Below are positions 9,201 to 63,729 of a stretch of 64,000 nucleotides of DNA, piece by piece. Below the pieces are notes generated by a model, which was not told the DNA's origin, searched no databases, and saw only the letters and a list, made by a program, of their open reading frames with translations. The stretch covers positions 1,376,001-1,440,000 of the forward strand of contig JBFWVL010000001.1 of the NCBI GenBank assembly GCA_050246755.1, read 5' to 3'. The position numbers and the translations under genes were made by a program. Numbering within the stretch: position 1 is the stretch's first letter; each line of letters begins with the position of its first letter. Source of the stretch: Bacteriovoracia bacterium (GTDB lineage Bacteria; Bdellovibrionota; UBA1018; CAIPTA01).

Positions 9201-10694
9201 TTATTTCGCGAGCACTTTGCGGATTGCGCCGTCCCATTTTTTCGTGAGCTTTTCGCGGTCTTTCTTGGCCATATCCGGCTGGAAGGTGCGGTCGATTTTC
9301 CAGGAGCGCTTGAGTTCTTCTGCATTCTTCCACATCCCGATGGCCAATCCAGCGGCCAGGCCGGAACCGAGGGCCGTGGTATCAAGTACTTGCGGGCGAT
9401 CAATAGGAATATTGGCGAGATCGGATTGGAGCTGGATCAAGAGATTGTTCGCTGATGCGCCGCCGTCTACTTTGATGCGTGCCAATTTTTTCGGTTTGAT
9501 ATCTTGGGCGATCGCAGAAAAGAGAGAGTTATTTTGTAGGGCGATGCCCTCCAGCGTAGCGCGCGCGATCTGAGCTTTGTTGGTGCCGCGCGTGAGGCCG
9601 GTGAGCATGCCGGTAGCCTCGGCATTCCAGTAGGGTGCTCCGAGACCGGTGAGGGCGGGCACAAATACTAAATTTCCCATGTCTTCCGATTTGGCCTGGG
9701 CCGCAAGCGCTTCCACTTCGCCGGAGGATCTAATGATCCCGAGATTATCGCGCAGGAACTGCACGGCCGCGCCAGCCACGAAAGCGGAGCCTTCGAGCGC
9801 ATAGGTGATTTTTCCGCCTACTTGCCAAGCTACGGTCGTGAGCAATCCGTTTTTGGAATAAACGATTTTATTTCCGGTATTACACATCAAGAAAGCGCCG
9901 GTGCCGTAGGTGCACTTGGAATCACCCACTCCTAGGCAAAGCTGGCCGAAAAGGGCGGCTTGCTGGTCACCCAGGATTCCTGCGATCGGAATTCCGTCTG
10001 GAAGAAAGCCGAGGTTCTTGGTGGTACCGAATATGCCCGCCGAGGGCATAATTTTTGGCAGAGATTTTTCCGGCACGCCAAAAACGCCGAGCATTTTCTC
10101 ATCCCAGGCCAGTTTTTGCAGGCTCATCAGCATAGTGCGGCTGGCGTTCGAAACGTCGGTGGCATGAACCGTGTTTCCCGTAAGCCGGTGAAGCAAAAAT
10201 GTGTCTACGGTGCCAAAAATGGCTTTCCCGCGCTTCGCGTCGGCGGCCAGACCCCTCACATTTTTCAGCAGCCACTCGATTTTCGTTCCGCTGAAATAGG
10301 GATCGATCACGAGACCGGTCCGCTGCTTTACGTACTTGATCAGGCCCTTTTTTTTTCGCAGCTCCTCACAGCGCTTAGCGGTGCGCCGGCATTGCCACAC
10401 GATAGCGTGATGATACGGCTTGCCATTTTCCCTCTGCCAGGCACCCACGGTTTCTCTCTGATTCGTGATGCTAATGGCCGCGATGTCGGAGGGAGAGCGA
10501 TTCTTTAAAAGATCGGTAATTGTGTTCTGAGTACCCATCCAGATCTTTTCCAGATCGTGTTCTACCCATCCGTATTGAGGATAGTTGGGAAGAATTTCGG
10601 TGGAGGCTCGGCCCACCACGTTGAGGGAAGCATCGATCAGGAGCGCGGTGGTAGCGGTGGTTCCTTGATCGATTGCTAAAATAAGTTTTGCCAT
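9201..10694 (-). CDS. glpK: Glycerol kinase
   Basis: IDQGTT, ITNQRET, VWQCRRT, DPYFSGTK, GDQQAAL, YGTG; start MAKL at 10694 with GGAG RBS. Confidence 0.97.
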   Translation of the reverse strand: MAKLILAIDQGTTATTALLIDASLNVVGRASTEILPNYPQYGWVEHDLEKIWMGTQNTITDLLKNRSPSDIAAISITNQRETVGAWQRENGKPYHHAIVWQCRRTAKRCEELRKKKGLIKYVKQRTGLVIDPYFSGTKIEWLLKNVRGLAADAKRGKAIFGTVDTFLLHRLTGNTVHATDVSNASRTMLMSLQKLAWDEKMLGVFGVPEKSLPKIMPSAGIFGTTKNLGFLPDGIPIAGILGDQQAALFGQLCLGVGDSKCTYGTGAFLMCNTGNKIVYSKNGLLTTVAWQVGGKITYALEGSAFVAGAAVQFLRDNLGIIRSSGEVEALAAQAKSEDMGNLVFVPALTGLGAPYWNAEATGMLTGLTRGTNKAQIARATLEGIALQNNSLFSAIAQDIKPKKLARIKVDGGASANNLLIQLQSDLANIPIDRPQVLDTTALGSGLAAGLAIGMWKNAEELKRSWKIDRTFQPDMAKKDREKLTKKWDGAIRKVLAK

Positions 10695-36380: not shown

Positions 36381-37346
36381 ATGAACAAGATACCCAAAGA
36401 CCAGCCTTTAATCGTTCTCAGTATTGGGACCAAGATCCTCATGAAGGATGTGATGGACCAGTACCTGCGCAGCTTGGGCGAAGTGAAAACCTATTACGCT
36501 GCCAAAATGAGCATGGCGGTGGAAAGCTTCCGCGAAAAAAAGCCAAATATCATTTTTTGCGAGCAGGCATTTGGCGAAGGCAGCGCTCTCGAGCTGATCC
36601 GGCAAATCGGTGGCCTTCCCCAGTCGGGGGACCAGTACTTCGTGCTGGCTACTGAGCAGAGCTCAGACGAGCTCATGGCCCTTTCGGCTGAAGAAGGAAT
36701 CGACGAAATTCTGGTGAAGCCTTTTTCCACCGAAACAATTCACCAGATAGTGGAGCGCTATTTCGATAAAAAGTCGGCCGCTGATCTGGATTGGATCAAA
36801 GATTTAAGGATGGCCAGGAAATCGTTCGAAGAAAAGCGCTTTCAGGAATCCGACGAGCTCTTCGGGGCCGCGGCCCGCAAATACGCGCAAAATATCAACG
36901 TGCAGCTCGAGTGTTCCGCGCATTTTCTCGAGCGCGGAAATGCGGAGCGAGCGGAAAAGCTCGTACAGTGGGTAATAGAAACTTCAATGGAAAACCCACG
37001 CGCCCTGCAACTTGCGGGGATGGCGCTGAAAAAGCTCGGCCGTTTCCGCGAAGCGGTGGACCGGTTTCGCCGCGCCGACAAGCTGAGCCCGCTCAATAGC
37101 ATCCGTCACGCCGAGCTGGCTGAAACGTATATGCTAATGGCGGAAGAACTTGTTCAGGCGGCGCTAAAGAGCGAGAACGAGAGCTCCACCCTTATCCTTA
37201 AGAAGGCCAAGCTGCACCTAATGCGCAATGACTATGCGGGAGTGGTAACTTACCTCGATGCAAAACGCGCTTTTCTGAGTGAAGCCGGAAAAAAAGAAGC
37301 GGACGCATACACTGCATTAGCGAAAAAACTCGGTGGCTTTAAGTAG
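36381..37346 (+). CDS. Atypical receiver-domain plus TPR protein
   Basis: REC-like fold (PNIIFCE, ILVKPF) lacking the canonical Asp residues; TPR-like helical C-terminus. Confidence 0.75.
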   Translation: MNKIPKDQPLIVLSIGTKILMKDVMDQYLRSLGEVKTYYAAKMSMAVESFREKKPNIIFCEQAFGEGSALELIRQIGGLPQSGDQYFVLATEQSSDELMALSAEEGIDEILVKPFSTETIHQIVERYFDKKSAADLDWIKDLRMARKSFEEKRFQESDELFGAAARKYAQNINVQLECSAHFLERGNAERAEKLVQWVIETSMENPRALQLAGMALKKLGRFREAVDRFRRADKLSPLNSIRHAELAETYMLMAEELVQAALKSENESSTLILKKAKLHLMRNDYAGVVTYLDAKRAFLSEAGKKEADAYTALAKKLGGFK

Positions 37347-38157
37347 GGCTTAGTTTCAAAATCTGGCGGGCCTCGGCCGGGCTCGCCACTTCTCGCTGCA
37401 GCAAGCGGGAAAGATCGGCGATCCGCTTCACGAGCTGCGCATTGCTCTCGGCCAGCACTCCCTTGGAGAAATACAAATTATCTTCGAATCCTACGCGCAC
37501 GTGCCCGCCGCTGACGATCGCGAGCGGCGCCACCTGCAGCTGAAATCGCCCTACGCCCGCCACCGCGAAGGTGGATCCTGTGGGAAGCTTAGATTTCATG
37601 TGAAACAAATTTTCTGGCGCGCCGGAAATACCGTGCTTGGTTCCCAACACGAATTGAAAATGGGCGGGCTCGGCGATCACGCCACTCTTAACGAGGCTCA
37701 CCCCGTATTCCAGCATGCCTAGATCGTAGACTTCGATTTCCGGCTTAATATTTAATTTCTTCATCGCGGAGGCGAGGGCTTCTACGTCTTTGGGAAGATT
37801 TTCGAATACTTCGTCGCCGAAATTAATCGAGCCCACGTTTAGCGAAGCCATCTCGGGCTTAAGATTCAAGGGAGCGAGGCGTTCCGAAACGGGAGTGCCC
37901 ACGGCGCCGCCGGTGGAGTATTGCAAAATTAAATCGCAGCGATCGCGGATCAGCTTACTCACCTTGGCGAAAAGTTCCGATGATTGGCTCGGTTTTTCTT
38001 TATCATCGCGCACGTGCAGGTGCACAATCGCGGCGCCGGCCTGCCAGCAGGCGTAGGCGGCCTCGGCCTGTTCCTCGGGAGAGCAGGGCAATTTCGGGTT
38101 CATGGCTTTCGTGGTTTCCGCACCCGTGATGGCGGCGGTAATAATCAGTTTCGACAT
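37339..38157 (-). CDS. kce: 3-keto-5-aminohexanoate cleavage enzyme
   Basis: KLIITAAITGAE, HLHVRD, STGGAVG, RVGFEDN; lysine-pathway context. Confidence 0.93.
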   Translation of the reverse strand: MSKLIITAAITGAETTKAMNPKLPCSPEEQAEAAYACWQAGAAIVHLHVRDDKEKPSQSSELFAKVSKLIRDRCDLILQYSTGGAVGTPVSERLAPLNLKPEMASLNVGSINFGDEVFENLPKDVEALASAMKKLNIKPEIEVYDLGMLEYGVSLVKSGVIAEPAHFQFVLGTKHGISGAPENLFHMKSKLPTGSTFAVAGVGRFQLQVAPLAIVSGGHVRVGFEDNLYFSKGVLAESNAQLVKRIADLSRLLQREVASPAEARQILKLSPT

Positions 38158-38202
38158 CACTCTATCTCACGCGCCCAAGCGGAATTTGTCAACGGCGCGT
38201 TG

Positions 38203-39099
38203 CTACCGGATAATTTCGTGCACCAGGGAGTAGAGTGCCTTTGGTAAATGCTCGAGCTGGGCCACGCGCACGTATTGCCCGCGGCCCTGGCGGGCAAGGT
38301 TGCGGCAAAACCGGGTGCTTGCCCAGGGATTGCCCGTTTGCACCATATGTAGGCGCGGCAATCGCGGAACGATATGTTCTGGATTTTTCCCGGCCGTAAA
38401 CCTGCCGTCGGTCATGAGAATCACGGCTTTCTTGGGTAGTTTTCCTGAGGCGGCTTCTTTTTCGGCTTCGATCAGCCCCGCTTCGATATTGGTGAGGCCG
38501 CGTGCCGGAACCTCCATGAATTTCTCGAGAATTTGGTAGATATCCATTTTCACGCCGAGAGGCTTGATCACGGTGGCGTCGGATTCGAAAACCACGACGG
38601 CGAGATCTTCGGGATCGAGCTGCAGGGCAATCACGGCCAGCGCCACCGCATTAATTGCTAATTTTCGCCCCGTCATGGAAAGGCTGGTGTCGAGGCAGAC
38701 AATTACCTCCGCGCGACGGGGTTCTTTTCTCTCCACGATGAGATCTTGCAGCGTGGGATCTTCTTCGAGCGAAGCTTCGAGGTCGAACTCTTCCTGGGGA
38801 TGCAGGTTCCATGCGTCGTTTACCAGAGAATATGGCCTCTGCACGGCCCCCATCACGGCCAGAGCTTTGCGAACAATGGCGCGGATGGCTGCCGCGCGGA
38901 TCTTCGCGCGTTTCACCTCGTCGAGACGTTTCTTGATTTCGTGGTAGTGGAGAGCTTTATCCCAATCGGATTGTGAAAGATTTTCTACGGCCCCATCACC
39001 TTCGTCGGAAAGAATTTCGGGGGGGAAGAATTTTATTTCCGGCTCGGTGGCATCGGAGGGAAGATCGCCGTATTCGAGCTCAATTAACTTGTCCGGCTT
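38203..39099 (-). CDS. vWA (MIDAS) domain ORF; probably the C-terminal half of a frameshifted AAA+-vWA fusion
   Basis: DTSLS MIDAS motif, GLTNI, MTDG. The frame stays open 61 codons upstream of the GTG at 38916, into the A10 run at 39098-39107. Confidence 0.85.
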   Translation of the reverse strand, partial: KPDKLIELEYGDLPSDATEPEIKFFPPEILSDEGDGAVENLSQSDWDKALHYHEIKKRLDEVKRAKIRAAAIRAIVRKALAVMGAVQRPYSLVNDAWNLHPQEEFDLEASLEEDPTLQDLIVERKEPRRAEVIVCLDTSLSMTGRKLAINAVALAVIALQLDPEDLAVVVFESDATVIKPLGVKMDIYQILEKFMEVPARGLTNIEAGLIEAEKEAASGKLPKKAVILMTDGRFTAGKNPEHIVPRLPRLHMVQTGNPWASTRFCRNLARQGRGQYVRVAQLEHLPKALYSLVHEIIR

Positions 39100-39959
39100 T
39101 TTTTTTTGGCTTGTTCGGCGATTTGCTCGATGGCCTTCTGGAATCCCAGCTCAGTTCCTTCTTCGGTAAGCTCCACGCGCGTAGGCAGGGCAAGCAACGC
39201 AGCGCGAATAAAAGACTCCCATTCCCCGCCAAGACTCTGGGCGATATCGTAGATACTGATCGCCGCGCGGATACTGGCGCCGCGCTTGAAGAGCACCGAG
39301 CTTCTAGTGCCACGCACGAGTTGCACGCTCCACTCGAGAAGCTGGTTATCCGCTTTTCCTTTTTCGCGGAAGCTCGAGGCGCGCTGAAGAATACCACGTT
39401 CTTCATTTTCGCTCTGGTAGTGAAGAGAAATGAGCTCAAAGCGATCTAGCAAGGCTTCGCTGAGATGGCTTGTGGCCACGAACTCGCGGGGGTTCTGCGT
39501 GGCGATCACGGTGAAGCCTTCTTTAGCCTTCAAGGTGCCGATACGTGGAATTTCAATTTTGCGTTCATCTAGGGCGGGAAGCAGAACGTTCTGCACGCCC
39601 TCAGGCATCCGGTTAAGCTCGTTGATGAAAAGGATAGAGCCCTTGCGAAGCGCCTGCGCCAACGGGCCGTCGAAATAGGAATCCGCGCCGTAACCTTTTT
39701 TCAGCACGGTAGGAGGATCAAACCAACCGGTGAGTTTTTGTTCGGTATAACGGGAATCCCCGTCTACGCGAATCACTTCCTTGCCCAGTAGCTCCGCCAC
39801 CGCGGCCACCAAGAAGGTTTTTCCTACGCCCACGGGCCCTTCGAGCAAAACATGCTTGCCGGCGCCCACGCAGTGCACGAGGTTTTCCACTTCGCGTTCA
39901 CGGCCTACCAGACCATATTTCTCGTGAAGGGTTTTTAGGATTTGGGCGGCGGACTTCAC
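39084..39959 (-). CDS. MoxR-type AAA+ ATPase
   Basis: GTG start overlapping the kamE stop; Walker A GPVGVGKT, variant Walker B ILFINE, ATQNP, LSEALLDRF. Confidence 0.92.
   Translation of the reverse strand: MKSAAQILKTLHEKYGLVGREREVENLVHCVGAGKHVLLEGPVGVGKTFLVAAVAELLGKEVIRVDGDSRYTEQKLTGWFDPPTVLKKGYGADSYFDGPLAQALRKGSILFINELNRMPEGVQNVLLPALDERKIEIPRIGTLKAKEGFTVIATQNPREFVATSHLSEALLDRFELISLHYQSENEERGILQRASSFREKGKADNQLLEWSVQLVRGTRSSVLFKRGASIRAAISIYDIAQSLGGEWESFIRAALLALPTRVELTEEGTELGFQKAIEQIAEQAKKKSRTS
39098..39107 (-). other. A10 homopolymer: candidate transcriptional-slippage or -1 frameshift site
   Basis: Minus strand GCC AAA AAA AAA AGC CGG ACA AGT TAA; the -1 frame AAG CCG GAC... runs without a stop into the vWA domain. 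Confidence 0.65.
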
Positions 39960-40765
39960 TTCTTGGCCTTCTTTCGGCGAATCATTTCGTCTACCACGTA
40001 GCTTGCCACATGGGAGGGGAGAGTTCCAGGCCCGAAGCCGGCATCGAGGCCGCACTCGATCGCGGTGGGGTGATTGAGGCGCGGGCCTCCCGCTACGAAA
40101 ATAAATCTCTCGCGCAGCCCCTGCTTCTCGGCGAGCGCCATGAGATTTTTTAGATTATCGATGTGGCAGTCTTTTTCGTCCACGATCTGGGAAACTAGGA
40201 TCGCATCGGCATCGGTTTCTACCGCGATCTTCAGAAGATCTTCGTTCAGAACCTGCGCGCCTAGATTGCGCGCATCGAATCCTGAATAGCGCTCGAGGCC
40301 ATAGTCGCCCTTATAGCCCTTCATGTTGAAAATCGCGTCGATGCCCACGGTATGGGCGTCGAACCCAGTGGTGGCGCCGAGGATCACGATCTTGCGTTTG
40401 ATTTCCTTTTTAATGAGATCGTTAATCTCGTAGAAGCTCTTGAACTCGGTTTCCACTTTCAGCACGTGAATTTTGGTGAAATCCACGGAGTGCGTAGTGG
40501 CACCGTAGGCCACGTAAAAGCTGAATCCCTCGGAAGGCTTTTCCATCGCCACCACTTTGATGTCTTGGAATCCCATCTTACGCATAAACTCCCGCGCGGC
40601 CTCCTCGGCCTCGGGGGAGGGGTTGAGCGGCAGGGTGAAAGAAACCTGCATGCGCCCATCGTTCATGGCGTCGCCGTAAGGTTTAATATTTTTCAGGTCC
40701 ACCATCTTTACGGAGGGATGGTCGGGAGCGCCATATGGAAGAAATTGGGTTTCTTTCTTATCCAT
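39956..40765 (-). CDS. kamE: Lysine 5,6-aminomutase beta subunit
   Basis: KPYGDAMNDGRMQVSFTLP, B12-binding DAHTVG, MKGYKGDYGLERY PLP-Lys region; GGAGG RBS before ATG 40765. Confidence 0.95.
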   Translation of the reverse strand: MDKKETQFLPYGAPDHPSVKMVDLKNIKPYGDAMNDGRMQVSFTLPLNPSPEAEEAAREFMRKMGFQDIKVVAMEKPSEGFSFYVAYGATTHSVDFTKIHVLKVETEFKSFYEINDLIKKEIKRKIVILGATTGFDAHTVGIDAIFNMKGYKGDYGLERYSGFDARNLGAQVLNEDLLKIAVETDADAILVSQIVDEKDCHIDNLKNLMALAEKQGLRERFIFVAGGPRLNHPTAIECGLDAGFGPGTLPSHVASYVVDEMIRRKKAKK

Positions 40766-42350
40766 AATCTTTAGCCTCCAAGCGATCGAGCATGGGGTTG
40801 ATATACCCATCTTCACGGTTGAAAACCCCTTTATAGCCCTTGCCGCCATCGATCTTACGGCTTACTTCGGCGAAGCACTTTTGCTCGATCGCCTTGAAGA
40901 TCCCGATTTTATCGATGTGGCGCAAGAGTTTCACGGAATCGTCGAGAACTTTCTGGGCCCACTTCTCGATCTTCCCGCCCTTTTTGTAAATGATCTCTTC
41001 GCCGAGGTGCTCGGCGCCGCCGAAAATATAGTTGCAGCTCTTGAGCGCCATGAAACGATCTCCGAGCAAGGGCGTATGGATAGCTTCGGTGGGCATGCCA
41101 AGCAGGTGGATTCCCTGATTCGTCATCACGCTCACGAGATTGAACATCGCGTCGTACACGTGGCTGAAATGAATATCGCCCTCCATGTGGCGGGTGGGGG
41201 GCATATACTTCAGGGGGGCCTTGGGGAAAATATCGCGGGTCATTTGCGCGCGCGCCACCTCGAGGAGAATCACGTCGGGATGAAATGGATTCATCTCCAT
41301 CGCGTGGCCGAGGCCCATATACTCGGGCTTCATATTGGCCGATAGCGCAAAGCGCTCGTTGATGAACTGGGAGGCAAGAACCTGGTGGCCGTTTTCCACG
41401 GCGTCGGCGGTGGTGAGGTAGTTGTCTTCGCCGGTATTGATGAAAATTTCCGATAGCGCGCATACCAGCCGCGAAAAATGCTGGTCGATCAGAGTGCGCT
41501 TCATGTTGATGTCGCGAAAAAGAATCCCATAGAGTGAATCGCACAATAAAAAATCTAGGCGTTCCTGCGCGGCGATCGAAGCGATTTCCGGCATGCAGAG
41601 GCCCGAAGAATAGTTCGTGAGGCGGATATAACGGCCGAGCTTCAGGCCCTCTTCATCGAGCGCCTTGCGCATGATGCGAAAGTTTTCCTGCGTGGCGTAG
41701 GTGCCGCCAAAGCCTTCCGTGGTTGCGCCATGAGGAACGTAGTCGAGCAAAGATTGCGCGGTGGAGCGGATCACGGCAATTACATCGGCCCCGGCCTGCG
41801 CGGCGGAGCGCGCTTGCACCACATCTTCGAAAATATTGCCCGAAGCTACGATCACGTACTTGAGCGGCGGCTTCCTGAAAGAAACATCATGCGGATCGAT
41901 CAGCTTGCTTTTGAGGCGGTTCCGCTCTTTACGCTTGTCGACCAGCGCCTTGAGCGCCACTTTGGCGAGCGCGTCGGCTTTTTTGAAGATGTCTTTTTCT
42001 TTCGCTACCGGGATTTTGGATAACCGGAATGCACCGTTGGCGCGAATGAGGGTGTCTACCACCTGGGCGGGCGTGGCATTTTGCTGAACGCAGGCATTGG
42101 CCATCCAGAAGGATGCCCCCCGCCCAATGGCGCCGTCTTCTTGCAGCTGATCCACGATCACGTTCGCGATCGGATAATGTTGTTTGATCTGGGGATTGAA
42201 GTAGGCACCGCTTACGCCGAGCAGCCGCAATACGGAACGCTCTGTGGCCACGGTAGAATGCGCGTCGATCACTTCCCGAACGTCTTTGGAAATTTTTACC
42301 GCGATTCGGCGGCAGTCAGCAATTTTTTTTCGGTCAAGGGCGAGCTTCAT
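40758..42350 (-). CDS. kamD: Lysine 5,6-aminomutase alpha subunit
   Basis: VIRSTAQSLLDYVP, GFGGTYATQENFR, NYSSGLCMPEI, KYMPPT. Confidence 0.96.
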   Translation of the reverse strand: MKLALDRKKIADCRRIAVKISKDVREVIDAHSTVATERSVLRLLGVSGAYFNPQIKQHYPIANVIVDQLQEDGAIGRGASFWMANACVQQNATPAQVVDTLIRANGAFRLSKIPVAKEKDIFKKADALAKVALKALVDKRKERNRLKSKLIDPHDVSFRKPPLKYVIVASGNIFEDVVQARSAAQAGADVIAVIRSTAQSLLDYVPHGATTEGFGGTYATQENFRIMRKALDEEGLKLGRYIRLTNYSSGLCMPEIASIAAQERLDFLLCDSLYGILFRDINMKRTLIDQHFSRLVCALSEIFINTGEDNYLTTADAVENGHQVLASQFINERFALSANMKPEYMGLGHAMEMNPFHPDVILLEVARAQMTRDIFPKAPLKYMPPTRHMEGDIHFSHVYDAMFNLVSVMTNQGIHLLGMPTEAIHTPLLGDRFMALKSCNYIFGGAEHLGEEIIYKKGGKIEKWAQKVLDDSVKLLRHIDKIGIFKAIEQKCFAEVSRKIDGGKGYKGVFNREDGYINPMLDRLEAKDYG

Positions 42351-43395
42351 AGAGGGATTGTAAGATTGTACGCAGCTCGCCGCTCTCCCGCAAGATGTCG
42401 AGCGTCAGGGCGGCATGTCCCTCGGTATACCCATTTCCGATCACTAACGTTACGTCGGCCCCCACGCCTTCGGCGCCAAGGGCCGCGGCGGAGAAGCTCG
42501 TGGCCATACTGAACAGGTACACGGTGCCTTTATGGCGGGTGGAAAGAATGCTGGCCATTTCGGTGCCGGCCACGTTGGCCACGTTGATCACCAGATCGGC
42601 GCCTTGGCCGCCAAAAGCCGCGCGAATTTTCACTGAAGCCTCTACGGCGTCCCGCGCGTTGCCCTCGATCACTTCGTCCACGAAGGAAAGCTGGCGCAGA
42701 CGCTCTGCGGCCACGGGAGAGTACTCGAAGGCCACTACTTTGCCGGATTTACCGGCCTGCTTTTTTGCTTCGTATAGGCAGAATAAGCCGCTTTTTCCGC
42801 CGCCGCCGATCACGGCCACGTTCATGCCGGGTTTCACGAGCTGCGCGGTTTGGGCGGGGGCGCCTGCCACGTCGAGCGCCGCGAGGGCTAGTCCTTCGTT
42901 GATATCGGCCGGAATCTTGGCGGCGATTCCGCTATTGAACAAAATGGCGTGTCCCTCCACTTCCACTCGTTCGATCTCGGGCAGAACTTTTTTAATGCGC
43001 GTGATTTTGAGGGGGGTGAGGGTAAGGGAAACGAGCGTGGCGATTCGGTCTCCCGCTTTAAAATTTTTGAAGTCGGGATTGGTGATATTGGCGCCCACTT
43101 GCTTTACGGTGCCGATCAGCATCCCTCCCGATCCCGTTACAGGATTTTGCAGCTTGCCGCGATTGCGGATCACTTCGAGAATAGCGGCGCCGGTGCGTTC
43201 GGCGTCTTTGTCGTTGGCGCCGTAGAATTGGTGAAAACTGGCGGAATCCACATTGAGGGAAGAAACCTCGATCAAGATCTCTTCCGCGCTGGCCGGGAGC
43301 TCGGCATCGAGGCGCTGGGCCTGTTGCGGAAGAACGCCCTTGGGTTCGAGCACGCGATGGATTCCTAAGTGAAGCTTAGGATCAAGCGCGGGCAC
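42334..43395 (-). CDS. kdd: L-erythro-3,5-diaminohexanoate dehydrogenase
   Basis: GIHRVLEP, NVDSASF, RGKLQNPVTGSGG, ATLVSLTLTPL, LDVAGAP, IGNGY; start re-called at GTG 43395. Confidence 0.93.
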   Translation of the reverse strand: MPALDPKLHLGIHRVLEPKGVLPQQAQRLDAELPASAEEILIEVSSLNVDSASFHQFYGANDKDAERTGAAILEVIRNRGKLQNPVTGSGGMLIGTVKQVGANITNPDFKNFKAGDRIATLVSLTLTPLKITRIKKVLPEIERVEVEGHAILFNSGIAAKIPADINEGLALAALDVAGAPAQTAQLVKPGMNVAVIGGGGKSGLFCLYEAKKQAGKSGKVVAFEYSPVAAERLRQLSFVDEVIEGNARDAVEASVKIRAAFGGQGADLVINVANVAGTEMASILSTRHKGTVYLFSMATSFSAAALGAEGVGADVTLVIGNGYTEGHAALTLDILRESGELRTILQSLYEARP

Positions 43396-44434
43396 GCTCC
43401 GCCTCCTGCACCCGCTCTTCGGCCATGCGGTTTGCCACGGTATTGGTAGGCAGTTTTTCTTGCTGCGAGCGCGCGATAATGTTTTTGATCGTGTCGTAGA
43501 TTTTGGCCACGTGAGCGTAGGCACGGTCGCGGTTATAGCCTTCGCGCTCGTGGTAAATATTGATCAGGCCGCCCGCATTAATGGCGTAGTCGGGGGCGTA
43601 GATAATTCCCTTTTTCAAAAGCTCTTCCCCGTCTTTTTCGGTGGCCAACTGATTGTTCGCGGCCCCCGCCACCACTTTGCATTTCAGGCGCGGCATGGTT
43701 TGGTTATTGATGATCGCTCCGAGGGCGCCGGGGCTGAAAATATCGCAAGCCACGTCGTAGACGGCCTCCGGGTTCACCACTTCGATATTGAATTCCTTGC
43801 GCGCGCGTTCCACGCTCTCGGGATTGATATCGCAGCCGGTAACTTTGGCGCCTTCCTGGTGGAGGTATTTTAAGAGGTAGTAATTTACGGCCCCTAGGCC
43901 CTGCAGGGTAATGTGCAGGCCCTTGAGGGATTTTTCCCCGAAGGCTTTTTCTGCGCAGGCGAGCATGCCGTTATATACACCCCACGCCGTTACGGGGGAT
44001 GGGTCTCCGCTGGAATTAGTTTCGCCGGCGATGCCGAGAATATGGGAAGTCTTGCTCTTGATCGTTTTCAGGTCACTAGAATCGATCCCGACGTCTTTGG
44101 CGGTGATGTAGTTACCTTTGAGGGTTTCCACGAAATCGCCAAAACGCCGCAGGAGCTCGGGAGTTTTTTGCGAAACGTCACCGATGATGATGCTTTTCCC
44201 GCCCCCCAGGGGAAGGTTTGAAATCGAGGCTTTGTACGTCATGCCCTTGGAGAGGCGCAAAACATCGGTGATGGCTTCGTCTTCATTGCGGTAATTCCAC
44301 ATACGGCAGCCACCAGTGGCCGGGCCTAAAGCAGTATTGTGGAGGGCGATAATGGCCTTTAGGCCCACTTTAGAGTCGTTGCAGAACACGATTTGTTCGT
44401 AATTATCTGCCTTAATTTTCTCAAAAACGCTCAT
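43382..44434 (-). CDS. Leucine dehydrogenase (Glu/Leu/Phe/Val dehydrogenase family)
   Basis: ALGPATGGCRM, LSKGMTYK, GGGK, SGDPSPVTA, GAANNQL, YAPDYAINAGG. Confidence 0.93.
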   Translation of the reverse strand: MSVFEKIKADNYEQIVFCNDSKVGLKAIIALHNTALGPATGGCRMWNYRNEDEAITDVLRLSKGMTYKASISNLPLGGGKSIIIGDVSQKTPELLRRFGDFVETLKGNYITAKDVGIDSSDLKTIKSKTSHILGIAGETNSSGDPSPVTAWGVYNGMLACAEKAFGEKSLKGLHITLQGLGAVNYYLLKYLHQEGAKVTGCDINPESVERARKEFNIEVVNPEAVYDVACDIFSPGALGAIINNQTMPRLKCKVVAGAANNQLATEKDGEELLKKGIIYAPDYAINAGGLINIYHEREGYNRDRAYAHVAKIYDTIKNIIARSQQEKLPTNTVANRMAEERVQEAERARA

Positions 44435-58977: not shown

Positions 58978-59822
58978 CGATAGCCGACATTTTAAAATCT
59001 ACCCCGAAGCGCAAGCGGAACGAAGCTTTGTGGCTGCTTGAATTTATCCTGAAAAAAAATAGATCCGAGCTTTTGCTGGATGCCGAGCGATCCCTTACGC
59101 CAGGTGAGCGGATAAAGTGGTCGGTGGCTTCGCTGGCCCGCAAGACGGGAAAGCCCCTGCAGTATATCGTGGGCAGCGCTCCGTTCTGGGGCAGGGAGTT
59201 TCGCGTGGGGAAGGGGGTTCTCATTCCCCGGCCCGAAACCGAAATGCTCGTGGAGCTAGCGTTAAATTTATTTTCGAAAGAGGAGGCCGTTAGCGCGCTG
59301 GATATCGGAACTGGTTCGGGTGCGGTCGCGATCACGCTGAAACTCGAGCGACCGGGGTGGAAAATAACCGGAACCGATATTTCGGCTAAGGCCCTAAAAT
59401 TTGCGAAAGAGAATGCCAAGGTATTGGCAGCGAACGTGGAGCTGGCGCGTGCCGATCTTTTTTCGCCCAAGCTGCGAAAAAAAAATTGGTCGCTGGTGAT
59501 CTCCAATCCTCCTTACCTCGATACGCGTAAGGATAAAATTGCTGCCGAAGTAAGGGATTGGGAGCCGCGCTCTGCGCTCGAGCCCGCCCTCAAAGAGAAA
59601 TCAAAAGAAGTGAAAGAGCGGGCCGCCTGGTGCGCGGAAAAAATCCTGCGCGGCTGCGCGGCCGCTAAGCCAAGGTATACGGCGCTCGAGCTCAGTGCGC
59701 GCGTGGCGAAATTGCTCGAAACCCGCTGGCGCACACATGAATCGGTGGCGCGCATTTGGCGTGAGGCCGACCTCGCTGGTAAGAAGCGGTTTTTATTGGT
59801 AGCTTGGAAGCAAGATGCATAA
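58974..59822 (+). CDS. prmC: Release factor glutamine methyltransferase
   Basis: PLQYIVG, LIPRPETE, DIGTGSG, SNPPY. Confidence 0.95.
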   Translation: MTIADILKSTPKRKRNEALWLLEFILKKNRSELLLDAERSLTPGERIKWSVASLARKTGKPLQYIVGSAPFWGREFRVGKGVLIPRPETEMLVELALNLFSKEEAVSALDIGTGSGAVAITLKLERPGWKITGTDISAKALKFAKENAKVLAANVELARADLFSPKLRKKNWSLVISNPPYLDTRKDKIAAEVRDWEPRSALEPALKEKSKEVKERAAWCAEKILRGCAAAKPRYTALELSARVAKLLETRWRTHESVARIWREADLAGKKRFLLVAWKQDA

Positions 59823-63375: not shown

Positions 63376-63729
63376 AATTAAGTTCCCAGTTTCTGTCGTC
63401 CCTTTTTTTGGAACTGCTTCCAGAGAAGCAGTTAAATTATGCCCTATTTTACGAGGGTGTTTACGTTCGATTTTCTAAATCCTTCGCTGATTTATTGCGG
63501 TTCAATCTTTCCTGATTTGCCGCTCCAATGATTTGATTTGTGACGTTGCAAGATGGGTTCGATAAAAATCGCGTCGAATTTTCATTCTCTAATATCCGAC
63601 CATACCTTTTTTTATTCTCTTCTATTCTCGTCAGCTCAAAAATAGCCCAGCGCCAAGCCCATTATCCGACAAAAACAATCCGTATTTATACACGCTCTTC
63701 GAAAAAAAAACATTTTCCTACAAAACTAC

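Follow-up and report, generated by a model that had tools for sequence, protein, structure and literature searches.

A conserved poly-A run points to recoding of a MoxR-class AAA+ ATPase gene into an ATPase-vWA fusion, mainly in Bdellovibrionota

The window analysed here is a stretch of 64,000 nucleotides (nt) from a Bacteriovoracia bacterium (GenBank assembly GCA_050246755.1, contig JBFWVL010000001.1, positions 1,376,001 to 1,440,000); all coordinates given below refer to the window. On its minus strand, between positions 39959 and 38203, an open reading frame (ORF) for a MoxR-class AAA+ ATPase is followed by a second frame, offset by -1, which carries a von Willebrand factor A (vWA) domain. 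The two open frames overlap at a run of ten A residues (A10). An earlier note, made from the sequence alone, had taken this run for a site of programmed recoding, at which one gene yields two proteins, the short ATPase by itself and a longer ATPase-vWA fusion. The conserved run, the fixed -1 frame, the coding linker and the occurrence of in-frame fusions only in distant relatives, all described below, support this proposal, and we consider it likely that the pair is a single gene with programmed poly-A recoding.

Re-reading of the locus reproduced its anatomy as first described (Table 1). The AAA+ ORF starts with GTG at 39959 and ends GCC AAA AAA AAA AGC CGG ACA AGT TAA, with the 0-frame stop (TAA, 39084-39086) located 11 nt past the A10 run. 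The -1 frame opens upstream of the run, passes through it, reads KPDKLIELEY...KRLDE without a stop and then continues to the vWA stop at 38203. Past the run, its first ATG, GTG or TTG is the GTG at 38916, 170 nt beyond the AAA+ stop. Counted from the run, the product of the -1 frame has 298 aa and carries the vWA domain; given one extra A or a -1 shift, it would be joined to 287 residues of the ATPase, which results in a fusion of 585 aa alongside the 291 aa of the short product. The position of the run and of the AAA+ stop, the opening of the -1 frame after TGA 39151-39153, the lack of an earlier start codon, and both protein sizes had been claimed in the earlier note and were confirmed by translation. 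A second homopolymer, a C7 run (TTC TTC CCC CCC GAA, approximately 39018-39030, minus strand), is found inside the -1 frame, where it encodes the conserved F-F-P-P-E of the linker.

Table 1. Features of the AAA+/vWA locus and of the operon around it.
Feature	Positions	Strand	Basis or remark
MoxR-class AAA+ ATPase ORF (AAA_5), 291 aa, short product	39084..39959	-	translation; Pfam; PDB sequence matches
Walker A P-loop GPVGVGKT, residues 41-48	39816..39839	-	translation, residues hand-counted
A10 run, proposed recoding (slip) site; 0 frame = AAA AAA AAA A	39098..39107	-	sequence, conservation in relatives, bridging contigs
-1 frame already open upstream of A10; begins after TGA 39151-39153	39100..39150	-	translation
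Linker, first 41 codons of -1 frame: acidic, Pro-containing, predicted disordered, no start codon	38977..39099	-	translation, AlphaFold2, codon-position differences
Helical hairpin, residues 42-83, conserved; W46 and A49 invariant, Y52, H53 and K56 nearly so	38851..38976	-	alignment, model
vWA domain, stop codon 38203-38205	38203..38850	-	Pfam VWA_2, VWA_CoxE, VWA; model; Foldseek
MIDAS motif D-T-S-L-S (DxSxS), residues 137-141 of -1 product	38677..38691	-	alignment of 20 sequences
GTGA overlap, kamE stop with AAA+ GTG start	39956..39959	-	sequence
kamE	39956-40849	-	upstream operon gene, stop overlaps AAA+ start
kamD	40758-42350	-	upstream operon gene
kdd-like gene	42334-43524	-	upstream operon gene
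ELFV-type amino-acid dehydrogenase	43382-44434	-	upstream operon gene
kce	37339-38160	-	Pfam BKACE 348 bits

Runs of nine or more A residues are not rare in the window: five were observed where 4.07 would be expected, and a count of five was reached in 45 of 100 shuffles. Because such a run is compositionally unremarkable when taken alone, the significance of the A10 rests on its conservation in relatives. Elsewhere in the window, an A9 run at 59477-59485 (plus strand) lies in frame in a gene that carries an NPPY methyltransferase motif (...KLRKKNWSLVISNPPY...), and another at 63702-63710 (plus strand) lies in an AT-rich stretch near the window end.

Homopolymers invite errors, and fused homologues that read in frame do occur; both facts would fit an assembly or sequencing error, or else a recent inactivating frameshift that turned a fused gene into a pseudogene. 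Authenticity was checked with Logan contigs from four DNA sequencing runs of two studies over positions 38203-39959; two of the four are possible sources of the assembly. Contigs from all four span the A10 ungapped, without a reported insertion or deletion. One of the bridging contigs represents a strain that differs at 15 of the 376 nt spanning the A10, and a bridging contig from a different study has 151 differences in 1757 nt (91% identical). The contigs thus show A10 and not A11, which settles a question raised in the earlier note at the level of contigs, which drop rare variants, so that low-level heterogeneity of run length would not show. An error or pseudogene is contradicted by the agreement of independent contigs, by the purifying selection that still acts on both halves and by the same run and frame break being present in 88 of the 90 distinct junctions, which stem from numerous assemblies and studies (see below). 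With four contigs free of insertions or deletions and a frame break shared by nearly all junctions, assembly error was rejected, and we regard the probability of this whole class of explanations as negligible.

A search with the linker-vWA translation gave a match in 36 of 41 genomes of the same class. In all 20 loci that were fetched, the AAA+ gene is directly upstream and the vWA is at -1, while the run in the overlap of the open frames is A10 in 16 and A9 in 4 of them. This arrangement is kept even where the identity of the vWA has fallen to 32-38%. When GTDB representative genomes were scanned with the vWA alignment, 80 further loci were obtained, mostly labelled Bdellovibrionota, Oligoflexia, Bdellovibrionia or Bacteriovoracaceae; a few carry the labels Myxococcota, Abyssobacteria, Dehalococcoidales or Pseudomonadota, although submitter labels of metagenome-assembled genomes may be unreliable. 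An AAA+ gene is adjacent in 76 of the 80, the remaining four being cut by contig ends, and the vWA was scored at -1 in 75 of these 76. Another 18 loci, cut from weaker same-class matches, have the same arrangement, including copies with 27-31% vWA identity, which belong to a family without kamD; in one locus (L108) the A9 sits 36 nt before the stop. Two genomes carry two recoded AAA+/vWA pairs each (G015 with L017 and L117; G017 with L115 and L118), and each copy has its own A9 or A10.

Removal of identical junctions reduced the 118 loci to 90 distinct junctions, in which the run is A9 (44), A10 (41), A11 (1), A8 (1), A7 (2) or A6 (1). The run thus comprises 9 to 11 A residues in 86 of the 90, and the vWA frame is at -1 in 88 of the 90, while the identity of the flanking proteins across related loci falls to about 30%. 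Conservation in relatives had been named beforehand as the test of programmed recoding, and these two counts turned out strongly in its favour.

Outside the run, the Lys codons of the same genes are AAA 1046 times and AAG 1131 times (48% AAA), and the GC content of these genes ranges from 34 to 75%. As the same genes mix AAA and AAG over such a range of GC content, the uninterrupted A run is unlike a Lys patch, and we conclude from this comparison that selection acts on the nucleotides of the run. An A9 run that is in frame in a glycerol-kinase-like gene of the window (10348-10356, minus strand; ...CEELRKKKGLIKY...) served as a control: at the aligned place, none of 29 relatives keeps nine or more A residues, the longest run having eight.

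Several points weigh against the proposed recoding or limit the force of these counts. The relatives are not independent, and the junction counts are counts of loci, which overstate the number of independent events. Among the loci from the GTDB scan that have an AAA+ gene, the one not scored at -1 (L063) is at -1 at the run but shows a second frame break downstream. The only real exception is L107, which has A8 with the vWA at +1. Two other A9 runs of the window lie in frame within ordinary genes, which shows that coding sequence here can accommodate an A9. Furthermore, the in-frame fusions of archaea, described below, indicate that a separate short form is not needed everywhere.

The earlier note had interpreted the apparent intergenic gap between the two ORFs as a linker, and this interpretation held. 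In an alignment of 20 linker-vWA translations, W46 and A49 are invariant and Y52, H53 and K56 nearly so. All of these positions precede residue 62, which corresponds to the first possible start in the window (GTG 38916), and an F-x-P-P-E motif is found even closer to the run. For the first 60 linker codons, a comparison of five close relatives with ungapped linkers gave 172, 97 and 343 differences at codon positions 1, 2 and 3, respectively, a pattern of coding constraint from the run onward. An AlphaFold2 model of the linker-vWA product, computed from the alignment, has a mean predicted local distance difference test (pLDDT) score of 80.8. Residues 1-41 are disordered in the model (pLDDT <50 at 1-5, 7-14 and 20-41), helices are formed by residues 42-58 and 61-83 (pLDDT 75-94), and the vWA fold has pLDDT values mostly above 90. 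The GTG at 38916 falls within the second helix. We conclude from the alignment and the substitution pattern that, starting at the run, the linker is coding sequence.

These data also bear on the possibility that the pair represents two ordinary genes, with a vWA gene that starts by itself at a downstream GTG or TTG or at a non-canonical codon, perhaps coupled to the AAA+ stop, and with the A run being a Lys patch or spacer. This is how gene callers would annotate the locus; a GTG is indeed present at 38916, and NorQ/NorD and CbbQ/CbbO are encoded by separate genes. Among the 71 junctions in which the W motif was found, 57 have some ATG, GTG or TTG between the run and this motif; however, 14 have none at all, and 33 have no ATG. 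The 60 codons 5' of the GTG of the window show an excess of third-position substitutions together with conserved motifs, and the GTG itself would lie inside a confidently modelled helix. A Lys patch would be expected to contain both AAG and AAA, like the remainder of these genes (48% AAA), the in-frame fusions align through the linker, and a fixed -1 in 88 of 90 junctions, without an overlap of the ATGA type, would be left unexplained. Based on the conserved motifs upstream of the GTG, the junctions devoid of a start codon and the position of the GTG within the helix, independent initiation of the vWA was largely rejected, and we consider two ordinary genes very unlikely. In genomes with such loci, automatic annotation will systematically report the vWA gene in truncated form and with a wrong start, or as "hypothetical".

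Longer relatives of the AAA+ protein were scored among the 8000 candidates sharing most words, and the results in this paragraph refer to that set. At least 373 proteins of 511-2000 aa matched with E<=1e-20. The best of them are 50-58% identical, have about 600 aa and consist of AAA_5 plus vWA; the named sources of the best fused relatives are Thermoplasmata, Nitrososphaerales, other archaea and Acidoferrales. Twelve fusions of 584-624 aa were fetched; all proceed in frame from the ATPase through the linker to the vWA and share the linker motif W-x-(I/V)-A-x-x-Y. No in-frame form with more than 58% identity was found among the candidates scored, whereas the out-of-frame relatives from the same genus are 74-80% identical.

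This gap in identity disfavours ON/OFF switching within the recoded clade, as would be expected of a phase-variable contingency locus in which replication slippage toggles between A10 and A11, so that some cells make the fusion and others the short ATPase. Homopolymers are classic sites of phase variation, and one locus with A11 (L090) and one with A8 (L107) were encountered. Nevertheless, the vWA of L090 is still at -1, not one of the 90 junctions was assembled in the in-frame state, the four contigs over the run of the window have no gaps, and the protein is cytoplasmic and metabolic rather than a surface protein. Phase variation was rejected at the level of consensus assemblies, and we consider it highly improbable.

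For the AAA+ domain, a quick IQ-TREE tree was computed from 77 recoded and 12 in-frame sequences, after the in-frame proteins had been trimmed to residues 1-300 and recoded ones shorter than 200 aa had been removed. Eleven in-frame proteins form one starred clade beside L080, L091 and the family of the window, and one or two changes of state are needed. As the tree is unrooted, we claim no direction of change between fused and recoded forms.

Regarding the way in which the -1 frame may be entered, 78 junctions were examined. The run starts at codon position 3, 2 or 1 in 45, 22 and 11 of these, respectively. The homopolymer typical of a transcriptional slippage site (approximately nine or more A or T, sense strand) is present, being A10 in the window and at least nine A residues in 86 of the 90 distinct junctions; a slippery heptamer needs only seven, and we take the conserved length as evidence for slippage of RNA polymerase. 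Of the elements associated with programmed -1 frameshifting, the in-phase heptamer is present but a stimulatory element, be it Shine-Dalgarno (SD)-like or a downstream structure, was not found. SD-like 4-mers upstream of the run are not enriched (30 of 78, compared to 24 +/- 4.3 in the control). Within the windows used for minimum free energy (MFE) computation, which do not cover pseudoknots, there is no excess of RNA structure over controls from the same genes (mean z +0.32 and +0.61 downstream, -0.05 upstream). The scan and the MFE values are thus in line with the earlier note, which saw no strong hairpin downstream of the run and no internal SD upstream of it.

Polymerase slippage is somewhat favoured by the conserved run length, by the start of the run at all three codon positions and by the failure to find stimulators. 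Three observations argue against slippage as the main route. The 0-frame stop is 4 nt beyond the run in 43 of the 78 junctions. An in-phase X_XXY_YYZ heptamer is present in all 78 runs, the last one being A_AAA_AAG in 53, A_AAA_AAA in 20 and A_AAA_AAC in 5; this count is uninformative for 74 of the 78, since a run of at least nine automatically holds an in-phase heptamer. The short runs, in contrast, are exactly in phase: A6G in L065 (CGA AAA AAG), and A7 in L091 and L099 (GCA AAA AAA). In most loci the +1 frame closes within a few codons, so that the product of a transcript lacking one A would once more be a short ATPase.

The in-phase heptamers, the exact phase of the only short runs and the closeness of the 0-frame stop are what a purely ribosomal process would lead one to expect, either -1 programmed frameshifting or poly(A) sliding on A_AAA_AAA or A_AAA_AAG, with a homogeneous A10 mRNA. 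The tolerance of in-frame A9 in other genes of the window also fits, and Koutmou et al. in 2015 reportedly found ribosomal sliding on long AAA tracts that depends on tract length. A length of 9 to 11 where seven would suffice, a heptamer count that is automatic for most runs and the lack of both SD-like elements and downstream structure speak against this process as the sole one. In addition, passages of Antonov et al. 2013 ascribe comparable dnaX runs of nine or ten A residues to transcriptional realignment, and report for Mg-chelatase frameshift genes in E. coli reporters that frameshifting was 10% for 7 A residues, 40% for 9 and 63% for 11 (PMC3711429). We consider a purely ribosomal mechanism possible but the less probable one. 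As between the two routes, the sequence evidence places slippage of RNA polymerase somewhat ahead of a ribosomal shift, and both may contribute. The preference for polymerase slippage voiced in the earlier note is therefore plausible with respect to run length and the absence of stimulators, but is left unsettled by the in-phase heptamers and the phase of the short runs. The natural A6G, A7, A9 and A10 variants of one gene provide a clean system to discriminate between polymerase slippage and ribosomal shifting.

From the conserved frame break, the coding linker and the fusions found elsewhere we infer that the shift takes place; its efficiency, its route and the assembly of the products are put forward as proposals. 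One transcription unit would give two proteins. Standard decoding would produce the AAA_5/MoxR ATPase, and a fraction of expression events would enter the -1 frame at the A10 and produce the ATPase-linker-vWA fusion with its MIDAS (metal ion-dependent adhesion site). By the first route RNA polymerase would add one A to the transcript; by the second, ribosomes would slip by -1 on the in-phase A_AAA_AAA heptamer. The main product (...AKKKKPDK...) would be the same in either case. Short and long subunits may then co-assemble into an AAA+ ring that has fewer vWA adaptors than ATPase subunits. Such a geometry is known from solved NorQ-NorD structures, where a single vWA finger occupies the pore of the ring.

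The assignment of the two halves to protein families is consistent with such an assembly. The AAA+ ORF scores 89.2 bits against AAA_5 (PF07728; cut-off 22) and 62.6 bits against AAA_3, and with AAA_5 above its cut-off and a P-loop it qualifies as MoxR class. None of the NCBIfam equivalogs was reached (GvpN with 73 compared to 266.8). In a comparison with PDB sequences, the AAA modules of Midasin were best (E 3.5e-48 over three stretches), followed by NorQ (3e-12), an uncharacterised MoxR protein (2r44) and CbbQ (4e-7). By PDB sequence, this small bacterial ATPase is thus far nearer to the eukaryotic Midasin modules than to NorQ or CbbQ. The usual Walker B consensus is D-E; at this position the protein reads LFINELNR (N-E), and the in-frame homologues that were fetched have the same I/M-N-E-L/M-N-R. 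The vWA half scores 40.6 bits against VWA_2 (cut-off 27) and also matches VWA_CoxE and VWA. D137, S139, S141, T203 and D231 do not vary among the 20 aligned sequences, which conforms to DxSxS...T...D; T203 and D231 were assigned to the MIDAS site by reading of the alignment and are thus its putative members. Foldseek searches with the vWA model gave NorD VWA domains of NorQD complexes as top matches, with the MDN1 MIDAS at rank 17.

Membership in the ChlD/BchD/CobT families was ruled out, the scores being 32.5 bits against TIGR02031 (499.55 required) and 34.4 against TIGR02442 (779.45 required). Pfam Mg_chelatase (PF01078) matches with 27.5 bits, by the P-loop only and without a stretch that passes on its own. 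No gene for a CobN/ChlH large chelatase subunit was found in the flanks examined, a whole-genome search not being part of the analysis.

The pair is part of a minus-strand operon with the order ELFV dehydrogenase, kdd, kamD, kamE, AAA+, vWA, kce. The GTGA overlap of the kamE stop with the AAA+ start suggests translational coupling of the ATPase to the beta subunit of the aminomutase. The order kdd-kamD-kamE-AAA+-vWA was found in 49 of the 80 loci from the GTDB scan (kamE match), and many of the others are without upstream sequence. Within the class, 22 of 41 genomes are kamD-positive, and all 22 have the AAA+/vWA pair. In eight of the 22 (G017, G019, G022, G024, G026, G031, G036 and G038), the kamD match contains one in-frame stop (TGA, TAG or TAA), which may be due to an alignment overrunning the gene end.

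Lysine 5,6-aminomutase is prone to suicide inactivation, and an ATP-dependent activating factor is known historically. It may be speculated, with the operon as a weak hint, that the pair acts as a chaperone or reactivase for an enzyme of the lysine 5,6-aminomutase pathway. Against such a role, kamD was not matched in 14 of the 36 genomes that have the pair, and some loci without kamD have unrelated neighbours. In two loci (L026 from G004, a genome of the same genus, and L046), the ELFV dehydrogenase is directly upstream of the pair and kdd-kamD-kamE are absent. The G004 genome (96% complete) has no match to kamD and keeps the pair, which can thus persist without the aminomutase. Because of the pair-bearing genomes without a kamD match and the varied neighbours, we treat reactivation of lysine 5,6-aminomutase as a working hypothesis. 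In the papers searched, nothing was found on ATP-dependent reactivation of lysine 5,6-aminomutase, nor on a gene that encodes a factor of this kind. Through its operon link to kamDE, the pair becomes a testable candidate chaperone of a B12 enzyme.

An extended version of the proposal would regard recoding as a stoichiometry device that equips a homomeric AAA_5 ring with about one tethered MIDAS/vWA, a "split midasin" convergent with chlD, which in Bdellovibrionota would reactivate the B12- and pyridoxal phosphate-dependent lysine 5,6-aminomutase. Taken as a whole, this picture is rather doubtful. Its structural part is motivated by work on NorQD, in which a finger of NorD is described to enter the central pore of the hexameric NorQ ring (excerpt of PMC13036017). 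If a ring of the NorQ type can engage one vWA finger, this would provide a rationale for a vWA-bearing subunit that is sub-stoichiometric. A general principle is suggested, namely that rings which engage only one vWA finger use recoding to supply the adaptor-bearing subunit in sub-stoichiometric amounts.

As far as novelty is concerned, recoding of a MoxR/vWA pair was not found reported in a literature search that did not extend to the 146 GeneTack candidate clusters in the supplement of Antonov 2013. Of the AAA+/vWA genes, only the chelatase case figures in the parts of a 2016 recoding review that were accessible, and no mention of MoxR/vWA recoding was found in a 2025 frameshifting preprint. 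A literature match on Hardycor1 turned out to deal with frameshifting in a tail chaperone. Poly-A recoding that splits an AAA+ ATPase from a vWA domain has been known in one family, the chlD chelatases, and the MoxR/NorQ-like pair now appears as a second one, held over about 90 distinct loci that are mostly labelled Bdellovibrionota. Judging from the family assignments, it is a new gene family with a known kind of recoding and not a member of the chlD family.

The precedent cited in the earlier note, poly-A recoding of chlD, is real (Antonov et al. 2013, PMC3711429, as described in sections of that paper). As in the present locus, the frameshift genes of the chlD type consist of an AAA+ ORF and an overlapping -1 ORF for linker and vWA, with a conserved poly-A run in the overlap (7-11 A residues in chlD, A_AAA_AAR), according to portions of PMC3711429 and PMC9227772. 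These portions also describe short and long subunits that arise from one gene, with in-frame fusions in other taxa; the fusions have their counterpart here, as would the two subunits. The locus of the window thus has the -1 overlap, the conserved A-rich site and the fused homologues that make up the logic of the chlD system. It differs in its ATPase, which is AAA_5/MoxR-NorQ-like while that of chlD is ChlI/BchI, in its context, which is a lysine 5,6-aminomutase operon instead of a CobN/ChlH chelatase, and in its hosts, which are mainly Bdellovibrionota. Recoding of chlD was tested in reporters, whereas the present case is known from sequence alone; downstream structures have been described for chlD and none were found here.

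The shifted product of dnaX is shorter than the unshifted one. In the locus described here, the shifted product would be the longer one and would gain a whole domain. The likeness to dnaX lies in a poly-A site and in two products of fixed ratio from one gene, for which passages of PMC3711429 document both transcriptional slippage on A9 in Thermus and -1 frameshifting on A_AAA_AAG in E. coli.

Among bacterial relatives with solved structures, NorQ/NorD and CbbQ/CbbO, which serve nitric oxide reductase and Rubisco, respectively, come closest to both halves. Their ATPase and vWA are encoded by separate genes with their own starts, and no recoding was found described in the parts of the sources that were covered. 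Midasin (Rea1) combines both kinds of domain in one polypeptide of approximately 4,700-4,900 residues, with AAA_5 modules, a long linker and one C-terminal MIDAS which docks on the ring (excerpt of PMC13036017). Compared to Midasin, each chain of the present family carries a single module, and recoding would determine the ATPase-to-MIDAS ratio.

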